Shown piece by piece: positions 8,390 through 10,748 of a DNA stretch of 10,748 nucleotides; positions within the stretch are counted from its first letter, which is position 1, and each line of letters opens with the position of its first letter. The notes beneath the pieces were generated by a model. It saw nothing but the letters and a program-made list of their open reading frames with translations. It was not told the origin of the DNA and did no database searches. The translations under genes and the position numbers were made by a program. This stretch comes from a virus. The DNA is taken from UHGV virus genome UHGV-0162320; one strand, 5' to 3'.

Positions 8390-8406
8390 TATATTAAGTG
8401 ATTTAT

Positions 8407-8431
8407 GGCCTCGCTTTTAGCGGGGCTTTTT
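8407..8431 (+). terminator. rho-independent terminator after cargo ORF
   Basis: GGCCTCGC-tttta-GCGGGGC stem (one G-U pair) followed by TTTTT. Confidence 0.6.
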
Positions 8432-8487
8432 CATATCTGAATCTCACCATGCATATCATCACCTGACTGGAACGTCAGGAGAATTCG

Positions 8488-8670
8488 TTACCGGGATTCG
8501 ATAAAGGTATTCAAGCCTGACACATTATGCGCTGTATCGTCGCCGTATTCCCGCATTAACCATGACCGTAGCCCTACGGGGAACTCCTTCTGCGCGAGTG
8601 TGCGGGAATAATCAAAAACGATACACACCGGGTTTTTACCGCGTTTATGATTCGCGGGTTTGTCCCTCAT
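8488..8670 (-). CDS. hypothetical small protein (60 aa), opposite strand, in the position lambda uses for bor
   Basis: Track ORF 8488..8709; internal ATG 8670 with AGGA about 10 nt upstream; no recognisable family; hairpin CCTGAC-tggaac-GTCAGG (8452-8469) just 3' of it. Confidence 0.3.
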   Translation of the reverse strand: MRDKPANHKRGKNPVCIVFDYSRTLAQKEFPVGLRSWLMREYGDDTAHNVSGLNTFIESR

Positions 8671-8810
8671 GCTCGCCAGTCCTGTGCGGGGGTGGAAGAA
8701 ACAGGACACTTACACTGATTCTTGTGAGCATGATGCTATGCCTTTCTGGATTATCCCGATGCCATTCATGCAGGGTGCTGTATCAGACGCTCGTCAGAGC
8801 TGTCAGGCTG

Positions 8811-8859
8811 ACGGGTCCTCCCGGTGGGGTGGCCTGCCACGGGGCGGGAGCGTCGCGGA
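8811..8859. other. lambda-type cohesive-end site (cosQ/cosN homolog); predicted 12-nt overhang GGGCGGGAGCGT at 8842-8853
   Basis: acgggtcctcccggtggggtggcctgccACG GGGCGGGAGCGT CGCGG aligns with the lambda right-end/left-end junction acgggtcctttccggtgatccgacaggttACG GGGCGGCGACCT CGCGG as recalled from memory; 8 of 12 cohesive-end positions identical. Confidence 0.55.
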
Positions 8860-9070
8860 AAAAGGCTGGTTTTTGCATTTTCATGGCGGCGGCAGCATGT
8901 GTGATAATTTATTGATAATTAAAAATTATTTCTGTTTTCACCTGTACAATATTTTTTTCTCCCTGTCATTAGACTAGTTTGCAATTAATTGAAATATATA
9001 AATAAATTGGTTTTTCACCTGCCAGATGGAGTTGCCTGTGCAAAACGTGTTCAGATGGCGGGATATTTAT

Positions 9071-9093
9071 GCCGGATTCTCTCCGGCTTTTTT
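9071..9093 (+). terminator. rho-independent terminator-like hairpin between cos and head genes
   Basis: GCCGGA-ttctc-TCCGGC perfect stem followed by TTTTTTG. Confidence 0.5.
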
Positions 9094-9195
9094 GTGTCTG
9101 AATCTGATTAATCTATTTTTATGATAGAAATATGTTTATCTACCACTTTTATCGATCAATAATGCGCGCAGTTTAGTCAGTAAGAGGAAGTTACT

Positions 9196-9402
9196 GTGAA
9201 TTGTATTAACGACCTGAACACAGGCGAGGTAAAAGGTGGTTCCGTTCATCTGGATGCGCAGACCGTTATGCGCCTTAAGCAGTACAGGATCGACCATATA
9301 AATCATCATCCTAACAAACCATTACCAGGTGTGGCGCAGATTGTCAGACATGCCGTAAACACCTGGCTTAATCAGAATGGTTTTGCATCGGTGGGGGAAT
9401 AA
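9196..9402 (+). CDS. small protein (68 aa, GTG start), possible ribbon-helix-helix-like fold; first gene of head operon
   Basis: AAGAGGAAG RBS 7 nt before GTG 9196; stop overlaps the protease start (TAATG). Confidence 0.65.
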   Translation: MNCINDLNTGEVKGGSVHLDAQTVMRLKQYRIDHINHHPNKPLPGVAQIVRHAVNTWLNQNGFASVGE

Positions 9403-10729
9403 TGAATCGCTGGTACACCATTAAGGCGGCGGATGTTCGTGGAGCGGCGGATATATCTATCTATGAGGAGATTGGCGGCTTCGGTGTTACTGCAAAGCAG
9501 TTCGCGGAAGACCTGAAAGCCCTTGGCGATGTTTCACATATCAATCTGAGGATCCATTCACCAGGTGGTGATGTGTTTGAAGGCATCGCCATCTATAACC
9601 TGCTACGGAATCATCCGGCAGACATTACGGTTTATATCGATGGTGTTGCGGCTTCAATGGCTTCGGTGGTCGCAATGGCTGGCGATCGTGTAGTGATGCC
9701 GGAGAACGCCATGATGATGATCCATAAACCGTGGGGGATCTCTGGCGGAAATGCTGGCGATATGCGTGATTATGCTGATTTGCTGGATAAGGTGGAAACC
9801 GTGTTAATCCCTGCTTATGCCAGAAAAACGGGCAAATCAGCACAGGAAATTACCGCCATGCTGGAGGATGAAACCTGGATGGATGGGAAAGAATGCCTTA
9901 AGCACGGTTTTGCTGATGAATTGTTGCCATCCGTCAGAGCAATGGCGCGAATTGAATCGAAACGCACAGGAGATTTTTTACATATGCCGGAAACCATTAA
10001 AGGAATGATTACACCGCCACAGGGAGCGGCAAATATTGCTGGTAATGAACAGAAGCGCATCAATGGAATAAGTGAAGTGTTTAGCCTGTTCGGCAGTCGT
10101 TACGACGGGATCAAAATGGCGTGTCTGGAAGATGCATCATGTACACCGGAAATGGCCCGTGAAAAGCTGTTGAACGAGCTGGGGCGCGAGTCCACGCCAT
10201 CCAATAAAAATACCCCGCCTCATATCTATGCCGGAAACGGAAACATAACAGGTGATGCAATTCGTCAGGGGCTTTATTCCCGTCTTGGGTATGAACGCCC
10301 TGAACGAGGCAACCCTTACGCGATGATGAGCCTTTTTGAAATGGCCCAGGCATCACTGGTTGATCGTGGTATCACTGTGAGCGGTTTTATTAATCGCTCG
10401 CAGGTTGTTAATGCGGCTTTTACACACAGCAGCAGTGATTTTTCTCATATTCTGGCTGGTGGGGCTGAAAAATCTGTACTGAAAGGCTGGCAGGACAGCG
10501 GCGAAACGTTCCAGAAATGGACGCGTACCGGTTCGCTTTCAAACTTTCATGAAGCAAAGCGCGTTGGTCTGAATGGTTTTTCAAAGCTGGATAAAGTACC
10601 GGAAGGTGCGGAATATAAATACATCACCACCAGCGATAAAGGTGTACCTATTGCGCTGGCCACGTACGGGAATATTTTTTCCGTTACCCGTCAGGCCATT
10701 ATCAACGATGACCTGACCCAGTTAACTAC
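9402..10729 (+). CDS. ClpP-family (S14) prohead protease fused in-frame to a capsid/scaffold-like region (partial, truncated by window end and adapter)
   Basis: Absent from track (no in-window stop). ATG 9402, open for about 442 codons; ClpP motifs IHSPGGDVF, GVAASMASVV (Ser) and MIHKPWG (His); the C-terminal half continues without a stop into a region I take to be capsid-like by length and position only. Confidence 0.85.
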
Positions 10730-10748
10730 CTGTCTCTTATACACATCT
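10730..10748. other. Tn5/Nextera mosaic-end adapter (non-biological)
   Basis: Exact 19-mer CTGTCTCTTATACACATCT at the very end of the window. Confidence 0.85.

Follow-up and report, generated by a model that had tools for sequence, protein, structure and literature searches.

The window, as we call the whole 10,748-nt stretch of DNA analysed here, is very probably a chimeric contig and not one element, in which three loci have been threaded together at short exact repeats. All three loci are present, far apart, in one genome, that of the uropathogenic E. coli BH100N (NZ_CP025703), which served as the reference. Specifically, window 1–6935 is 100% identical to a prophage at 2.83 Mb (prophage A), window 6898–8867 is 100% identical to an mEp460-like cos prophage at 5.07 Mb (prophage B), and window 8833–10729 is 100% identical to a 10.8-kb island at 1.03 Mb, flanked by cspD and clpS. 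In mismatch maps, the mismatches to each locus fall solely beyond its own segment, those to prophage A all lying at or after 6936. The most likely explanation for a phage lysis end adjoining an island is a short-k assembly artefact, and the pattern of repeats and identities points to a de Bruijn misjoin. The source genome is probably that of an ST127-like uropathogenic E. coli, its likeness to BH100N resting on the identity of the three segments.

The E. coli matches to the window all end at 10729, and the string CTGTCTCTTATACACATCT, which we take to be the Nextera transposase adapter, a non-biological sequence, is found exactly at 10730–10748, the last 19 bases of the window. A first, sequence-only reading of this DNA had the contig ending inside a capsid gene. 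The last island base, 10729, does lie in that gene, but the end itself is adapter, and there is thus no biological cause for a contig end at this place.

Junctions between the three loci

The two junction repeats were defined by the mismatch maps together with an exact substring test in both partners, and neither is assigned a strand. Junction 1 (6898–6935) is a 38-bp exact repeat common to prophages A and B, located within the holin gene. None of the 5,426 complete E. coli genomes searched spans this junction, the best matches ending at 7472. The hybrid holin encoded across it does not differ in amino-acid sequence from ordinary type-A holins; in a protein look-up all ten of the ten places shown are ordinary type-A phages. 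To the left, the prophage A segment (1–6935, plus strand) derives from a pac-type phage that is unrelated to the cos element and is followed, in the real genome, by a Terminase_2 small subunit and a Phage_portal_3 portal.

The prophage B segment (6898–8867, plus strand) extends from the end of the holin gene through the left side of cos and carries, all on the plus strand, genes for a lysozyme (7060–7536), an Rz-like lysis protein (7533–7976) and a DUF6979 protein (8015–8389). Window 8390–8836 matches the right end of phage mEp460_4F5 (LR595868) with 100% identity. In the genome, the order of prophage B continues from cos to a DUF1441 small terminase (TerS), a large terminase (TerL), a portal and a fusion of a ClpP-like protease with a major capsid protein (MCP). 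The lysis cassette is thus part of a prophage equipped with TerS, TerL, portal and fusion genes directly after a cos of its own, and the lysis–cos–capsid order of the window is most likely a chimeric join.

The lambda-type cos homolog proposed from the sequence is borne out. Window 8811–8859 matches lambda cos (its last 32 nt plus first 17 nt) in 34 of 50 alignment columns, and the pairwise alignment shows conserved blocks around the nick sites. In the same alignment, the heptamer GGGTCCT at 8813–8819 (plus strand) has the same bases as its lambda counterpart, which we take to be lambda cosQ. A 12-nt cohesive end, GGGCGGGAGCGT, is predicted at 8842–8853, within cosN. Junction 2 (8833–8867), a 35-bp exact repeat common to prophage B and the island, is this cosN, with the phage-specific diagnostic bases G8827, G8828 and G8832 on one side and the island-specific ones G8868, C8876 and T8878 on the other. 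The earlier placement of lysis cassette, cos and capsid gene on one molecule is not confirmed, as identity switches from the cos prophage to the distant island within 8833–8867.

The segment that follows cosN (8868–9195, plus strand) is 100% identical to the island and forms the cosB-like right flank of the first of its two cos copies, cos1. Its GC content is 34%, compared with ~49% elsewhere in the window, in agreement with the AT-rich DNA described earlier. The flank contains a terminator-like hairpin at 9071–9087, and a sigma-70 promoter scan of this spacer gave nothing over the shuffled expectation. With ~94% identity, it also resembles the cosB region of a Qin-type prophage, which is followed there by a DUF1441 TerS gene.

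Among the 5,426 complete E. coli genomes, none matches window 8770–8930 at 99% identity, and the best full-length match over this interval, to the Qin-type prophage, reaches 94.4%. We considered on the basis of this match that the window might be a real phage and rejected the idea: the identity is only ~94%, the match diverges near 9038, and the Qin-type locus runs on into DUF1441 TerS and gpA terminase genes. No phage record spans the cos join, and the assembly collection contains no record of the 117-aa ORF that crosses it.

It is quite unlikely that the cos join existed as an actual molecule, in which the right end of a helper and the left end of the satellite, a phage-inducible chromosomal island (PICI), annealed through identical 12-nt ends and were then ligated, in virion DNA or after co-injection, to give a phage::satellite heteromer that was sequenced. 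Exactly such a cosN junction would be expected from these two ends: the crossover includes the predicted cohesive end, both sides are 100% identical to intact partners, and strains that carry prophage B also carry the island. However, the second switch, at the 38-bp holin repeat between two prophages, lies beyond the reach of cos annealing, and the untrimmed adapter suggests an uncurated assembly. Furthermore, the 67-nt string across junction 2 was not found in IMG/VR or JGI metagenomes, and a 12-nt join left unligated would not be expected to come through tagmentation and PCR as one unbroken template.

A genuine recombinant and defective prophage, in which an exchange at cos swapped the terminase, the portal and the remaining head module for the PICI late region, is very improbable. 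Lambdoid phages and PICIs do exchange late genes (PMC10111431), and 35 bp of cosN identity could support recombination, but the arrangement occurs in none of the complete E. coli genomes and nowhere in the phage collection. It would also require two independent rare recombinations, each 100% identical to loci still intact in the closest genomes, and would yield a dead phage. Under the preferred explanation, an assembly artefact, the second join is possible because satellite and phage have identical cosN. The biology behind such an artefact would be the retention, in the PICI, of the site at which the terminase of its likely helper cuts.

The island to the right of cosN

Judged by its genes, cos sites, att repeats and size, the element beyond the join is a Gram-negative PICI of the EcCICFT073 type. 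The island is inserted between cspD/yljB and clpS, and the att core ATGATAGTTAT is present at both of its ends (L001 13739 and 24570), 10,831 bp apart, a length within the ~8–12 kb range of this PICI type. Its genes run from int through AlpA, Icd-like, DUF4222 and D5-type primase genes to an iteron origin, SSB and cos1, which is followed by a 68-aa gene, the ClpP-protease/MCP fusion, cos2, a DUF1441 TerS homologue and a 93-aa gene. Pfam assigns the tyrosine integrase at the left end to PF00589/PF13356, the adjoining AlpA to PF05930 and the primase to D5_N/DUF5906, and identifies the SSB as well. The putative origin consists of direct repeats (iterons) at L001 19011–19180, immediately 3′ of the primase gene. 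The two cos copies, 85 nt each, are 96% alike; cos1 has a Qin-type right flank and cos2 an mEp460-type one, and the island cosN equals that of prophage B over 35 bp.

The order of genes proposed for this part of the window, a 68-aa ORF and then a ClpP-protease/capsid fusion with neither terminase nor portal gene between cos and the fusion, holds within the window. The 68-aa late-region gene (9196–9402, plus strand) matches phrog_4934 (E = 2e-32), and all 24 of the 24 long contigs read that carry it have it in the cspD–clpS island context. The fusion gene (9402–10729, plus strand) is represented in the window by the first 442 of its 637 codons, with the prohead protease domain at ~9492–9926 and the capsid domain from ~10404. 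The full-length protein matches PF00574 (ClpP, E = 2e-35) and PF25209 (capsid, E = 4e-53), and a PDB search with it returned ClpP matches. Compared with the 675-aa fusion of prophage B, it has 57% identity and a 29-residue gap in the linker.

One of the possibilities raised in the first reading was a phage-derived satellite with a capsid protein of its own that relies on a helper's lambda-type terminase. This fits the DNA right of cosN, a 10.8-kb PICI with neither TerL nor portal, but not the lysis cassette, which is part of prophage B. Annotation and Pfam searches of all ORFs of the island found no TerL, portal, connector, tail or lysis genes, and its head and packaging genes consist of the capsid fusion and the TerS homologue only. 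The proposed lack of terminase genes thus applies to TerL, as the lack of a portal gene applies to the island as a whole, and fails for the small subunit, whose DUF1441 homologue lies downstream of the capsid gene, behind cos2. This protein matches PF07278 (E = 2e-36) and phrog_141, annotated as 'terminase small subunit' (E = 2e-57), and shares 67% identity over 151 aa with the TerS of prophage B. It has no similarity to lambda Nu1 or to any solved structure. We rejected its assignment as an Rpp protein (BLASTP against RppA, E = 9; no Rpp chain among PDB hits at E ≤ 1) and retained it as a TerS homologue occupying the same gene slot.

The most improbable of the explanations considered takes the window as part of a single continuous satellite or prophage to which the lysis cassette, cos and the capsid gene all belong, with terminase genes maybe past the contig end. 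The window as given does read so. However, in every complete genome examined the fusion gene is followed by cos2, the TerS homologue, the 93-aa gene and attR/clpS, and SSB and primase genes, not lysis genes, lie upstream of cos1; the adapter, moreover, marks no element boundary. Of the terminase and portal genes that, directly downstream of the capsid gene, would have counted against the first reading, the island has the TerS homologue only.

Relationship to known satellites and phages

The late layout of cos1, 68-aa gene, capsid homologue, cos2, TerS or Rpp and 93-aa gene is already published for EcCICFT073 and EcCIIHE3034, and both the element and the layout right of the join are already described. 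The reference E. coli PICIs EcCIIHE3034 (10.5 kb) and EcCI18098 (10.8 kb) are both listed at cspD–clpS with att ATGATAGTTAT, and both are stated to encode TerS (Fillol-Salom et al. 2018, ISME J, PMC6092414). The island matches EcCI18098 in insertion site, att core, size (10,831 bp versus the listed 10.8 kb), stated TerS content and ST127 background, and by these features is probably a PICI of the EcCI18098 type. After mitomycin C, EcCI18098 is transferred at 80–110 transductants/ml (PMC6092414); we found no functional follow-up on it in the literature. Between int and cos1, with SSB included, EcCIIHE3034 has a backbone 88–95% identical to that of the island. In contrast, its late region is lambda-type, with a 351-aa E-like capsid protein, a D-like decoration protein and a Nu1-family TerS, whereas the island has the ClpP-protease/MCP fusion and DUF1441 TerS found in mEp460-type phages.

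EcCICFT073, the model Gram-negative cos PICI (PMC6092414, PMC6739421), shares with the island the order int, AlpA, DUF4222, primase, 85-aa gene, SSB and cos1, followed by a 68-aa gene, a capsid homologue, cos2, a packaging-specificity gene and a 93-aa gene whose product is 72% identical to that of the island. It likewise has two cos sites, with a cosN that matches the helper's and a divergent cosB. A 68-aa ORF occupies the same position in both EcCIIHE3034 and EcCICFT073, although its sequence is barely similar (29% identity, E = 0.048). The two islands differ in that the slot of RppA (144 aa) here contains a TerS homologue of full length, for which no similarity to RppA was detected, and in that the capsid homologue here comes from another family and is fused to a protease.

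With mEp460-like phages (mEp460_4F5 and prophage B), the island has cosQ and cosN in common, including 35 identical bp, and such a phage is likely to be its helper type, judging from sequence. Unlike the island, these phages carry TerL, portal, head-completion, tail and lysis genes, and their TerS gene lies in the order cos–TerS–TerL–portal–fusion, not after the capsid gene and behind a second cos.

A capsid gene is present in 21 of 29 reference Gram-negative PICIs (PMC10111431). The cf-PICIs (capsid-forming PICIs), according to a preprint (bioRxiv 10.1101/2022.09.08.507074), encode all proteins for small capsids and steal tails only. They resemble the island in combining a PICI backbone with an own capsid protein, but we rejected membership of the island in this group, as TerL, portal and head–tail connector genes are missing. 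In SaPIbov5, Ccm is a capsid-protein homologue that makes small capsids, as cited in PMC6092414. Like the island fusion, it is a satellite's own counterpart of the HK97-fold capsid protein of its helper, in an island packaged via cos; it differs in belonging to a Gram-positive system and in having no protease fusion.

Proposed packaging and significance

In the mechanism that we propose, a lambdoid helper of the mEp460 type would induce the island, which would excise and replicate from its own origin. The TerS homologue, either by itself or together with the TerS of the helper, may then guide helper TerL to a PICI cos, and packaging would use the portal, head-completion and tail proteins of the helper. 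The protease–capsid fusion may co-assemble with the helper capsid protein or replace it, and possibly alters capsid size or interferes with the helper. This scheme is built on homology, and a structural role of the fusion is putative, given that deletion of the capsid homologue of EcCICFT073 gave no phenotype.

A fairly unlikely joint reading goes further: the fusion, with its 29-residue-shorter linker, would build or co-assemble satellite-sized shells for the 10.8-kb genome, completed with the portal, TerL and tails of the helper, while the two cos sites, one with a Qin-type and the other with an mEp460-type cosB, would open two helper lineages. If so, the island would be an intermediate between classical PICIs, whose capsids come entirely from the helper, and cf-PICIs, which carry a whole head module. 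In a weaker variant, the phage–PICI cos join might be a real heteromer formed through the common cohesive ends.

With the join read as an assembly artefact, the identity of cos between helpers and satellites, 35 bp here, is long enough for short-k assemblers to splice a phage arm onto a satellite. Such cos-mediated splices yield apparent 'phages without terminase', and surveys that infer phage and satellite architecture from contigs should check for cos-type joins and untrimmed adapters. The island itself illustrates an already reported feature of E. coli PICIs, a late module made up of cos, capsid homologue, cos and TerS or Rpp, which is swappable and whose family follows that of the helper's head and terminase, and the module here is of the ClpP-MCP/DUF1441 family instead of the lambda E/Nu1 family.

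Composite origin of the window

In a BLAST search of 5,426 complete E. coli genomes, no record carried the region as one piece. Window 8811–10729 matches a chromosomal island (99.8%), window 1–7472 matches a prophage elsewhere in the island-bearing strains, and window 7480–8860 matches another prophage again in the same strains (100%). Mismatch maps drawn against a single genome, that of E. coli BH100N (NZ_CP025703), point unambiguously to three loci of origin. Specifically, prophage A (2.83 Mb) is identical to window 1–6935, with 59 of 59 mismatches located at or beyond 6936; prophage B (5.07 Mb), an mEp460-like cos prophage, is identical to window 6898–8867, with mismatches confined to positions before 6898 and after 8867; and the island (1.03 Mb) is identical to window 8833–10729, with mismatches only at 8827, 8828, and 8832. 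The first two segments overlap at junction 1 (6898–6935), an exact repeat of 38 bp within the holin gene, and the last two at junction 2 (8833–8867), an exact repeat of 35 bp, CCTGCCACGGGGCGGGAGCGTCGCGGAAAAAGGCT, which is cosN; each repeat is found in both partners. The switch at junction 1 joins two different prophages of one genome, and the left 6.9 kb is unrelated to the cos phage.

In its own genome, prophage B carries cos followed by the small terminase (TerS) of DUF1441 type, the large terminase (TerL), the portal, and a 675-aa fusion of ClpP protease and major capsid protein (MCP), while prophage A carries lysis genes followed by a pac-type module. Prophage A (L005 1–9400, which precedes window position 1, together with window 358–5192) also has a replication and DNA-modification module, with a DNA polymerase of family A, an Nmad5 'nucleotide modification' protein, DUF2800/PDDEXK, SNF2, and VRR-NUC proteins, several methyltransferases, and a VapE-domain protein of 730 aa.

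The final 19 bases of the window (10730–10748) are CTGTCTCTTATACACATCT, the sequence of the Nextera transposase adapter, and every genomic match ends at 10729. The contig thus ends in adapter, indicating that reads were not trimmed before assembly. None of the complete E. coli genomes shows at least 99% identity across 8770–8930, no phage record crosses the cos join, and searches of IMG/VR and the JGI metagenomes with a 67-nt string across the junction found nothing. We infer that two locus switches within exact repeats of 35–38 bp, together with the untrimmed adapter, are the characteristic trace of short-k de Bruijn misassembly. A real heteromer, with the phage right end annealed to the PICI (phage satellite) left end through cos, would yield the same junction 2, but cannot account for junction 1, and we therefore regard it as very improbable. 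The lysis-cos-capsid order proposed in the sequence-only reading thus consists of real features, but their placement next to the lysis cassette is most likely artefactual.

The cos region

The features themselves, a lambda-type cos, an AT-rich spacer, a 68-aa ORF, and a protease/capsid fusion, are all present, as verified by lambda cos alignment, a GC content of 34%, phrog_4934, and PF00574 with PF25209, respectively. The cos homolog (8811–8859) aligns with lambda cos (last 32 nt and first 17 nt of NC_001416) in 34 of 50 columns. Conservation is concentrated in GGGTCCT (8813–8819), the cosQ heptamer of lambda, and in the sequences around the nick sites; the 12-nt cohesive end predicted by homology, GGGCGGGAGCGT, lies at 8842–8853. 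The right terminus of mEp460_4F5 is 100% identical to window 8390–8836. The stretch of prophage B from Rz to cos holds a DUF6979 gene (8015–8389), then a strong terminator-like hairpin (8407–8427), and a short minus-strand ORF (8488–8709) with the annotation 'hypothetical'.

The spacer (8868–9195) contains a terminator-like hairpin (9071–9087) and is followed by the plus-strand 68-aa ORF (9196–9402; phrog_4934, E=2e-32), whose stop codon overlaps the start of the fusion gene. The BH100N RefSeq annotation leaves this ORF out and has a minus-strand 57-aa ORF (WP_001298307) at 9136–9309; the plus-strand ORF is the one annotated at the equivalent position in IHE3034 and CFT073, so the RefSeq choice looks like an annotation inconsistency.

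Anatomy of the island

In complete genomes, the DNA from cos onward is part of an island that sits between cspD/yljB and clpS and has a copy of ATGATAGTTAT at each end, the two copies lying 10,831 bp apart. The island comprises, in order, genes for a tyrosine integrase, AlpA, an Icd-like protein, a DUF4222 protein, and a D5-type primase, iterons directly 3′ of the primase, an 85-aa gene, SSB, cos1, the 68-aa gene, a 637-aa protease/MCP fusion, cos2, a 161-aa DUF1441 protein (phrog_141, 'terminase small subunit'), and a 93-aa gene. cos2 (L001 22524–22608, outside the window) repeats cos1 over 85 nt at 96% identity and immediately precedes the TerS homologue. Genes for TerL, portal, connector, tail, and lysis functions are missing from the island. 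The 68-aa protein lies in the same island context in 24 of the 24 long contigs read that carry it. The island shows all the hallmarks of Gram-negative PICIs that can be tested by sequence. The suggestion of a satellite with its own capsid thus holds for the right-hand DNA, which has a capsid gene and lacks TerL and portal, but the lysis cassette is not the island's, and the island also carries a second cos and a homologue of TerS.

To the right of cos1, the sequence shows ~94% identity with the cosB region of a Qin-type prophage; to the right of cos2, it resembles the corresponding mEp460-like flank in prophage B and runs into the TerS homologue, as in the phage. In E. coli strain 165, the Qin-type prophage (L006) is degraded and IS-disrupted, with a truncated TerL, yet its cos region, left and right of cosN, still matches the window at ~94% identity; cos1-type cosB sequences of PICIs therefore persist in cryptic prophages.

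Relation to known PICIs and a possible mechanism

The right-hand element belongs to a PICI type that has been catalogued before and whose architecture is published. Two PICIs with this att core are listed at cspD-clpS, EcCIIHE3034 (10.5 kb) and EcCI18098 (ST127, 10.8 kb; Fillol-Salom et al. 2018 supplementary table, PMC6092414), both TerS-encoding according to the main text, and EcCI18098 showed only low transfer after mitomycin C, 80–110 transductants/ml (Fillol-Salom et al. 2018, PMC6092414). By the four features compared, namely integration site, att core, length, and the presence of TerS, the island matches EcCI18098. It has a backbone in common with EcCIIHE3034 and EcCICFT073, and is 88–95% identical to EcCIIHE3034 through cos1 inclusive. 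The late regions of both have the island's layout (cos1, 68-aa gene, capsid homologue, packaging-specificity gene, 93-aa gene), with a decoration protein and one more gene accompanying the capsid homologue; the 93-aa protein of EcCICFT073 is 72% identical to the island's. However, their capsid is lambda E-like, whereas the island's is the ClpP/MCP fusion, and the specificity gene encodes a Nu1-type TerS in EcCIIHE3034, RppA in EcCICFT073, and a DUF1441 TerS in the island. Co-resident prophage B has a fusion 57% identical and a DUF1441 TerS 67% identical to the island's. The variable late slots of these PICIs track a phage family. Assignment of the island TerS homologue as an Rpp was rejected by sequence.

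In an alignment to the prophage B fusion, the translated island fusion retains the ClpP-type motifs GVAASMAS and MIHKP, which hold the catalytic residues, and differs chiefly in the protease-capsid linker, where the alignment has a gap of 29 residues. Among the late genes captured by Gram-negative PICIs, capsid genes are the most frequent, occurring in 21 of 29 reference elements (PMC10111431). EcCICFT073 has two cos sites, combining a helper-type cosN with a foreign cosB (PMC6739421, PMC6092414), and deletion of its capsid homologue gave no phenotype.

In the mechanism that we propose, an mEp460-type lambdoid helper would induce the island, which would excise and replicate from its own origin. 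The island TerS homologue, alone or mixed with helper TerS, would direct helper TerL to a PICI cos, which TerL could nick because the island cosN is identical to the helper's, and island DNA would be packaged using the portal, completion, and tail proteins of the helper. The island fusion may co-assemble with or replace the helper MCP, perhaps changing the size of the capsid or hindering the helper. The lesson is methodological, concerning cos-mediated chimeras and untrimmed adapters; a more modest point is that the PICI late module also exists in a ClpP-MCP/DUF1441 version.
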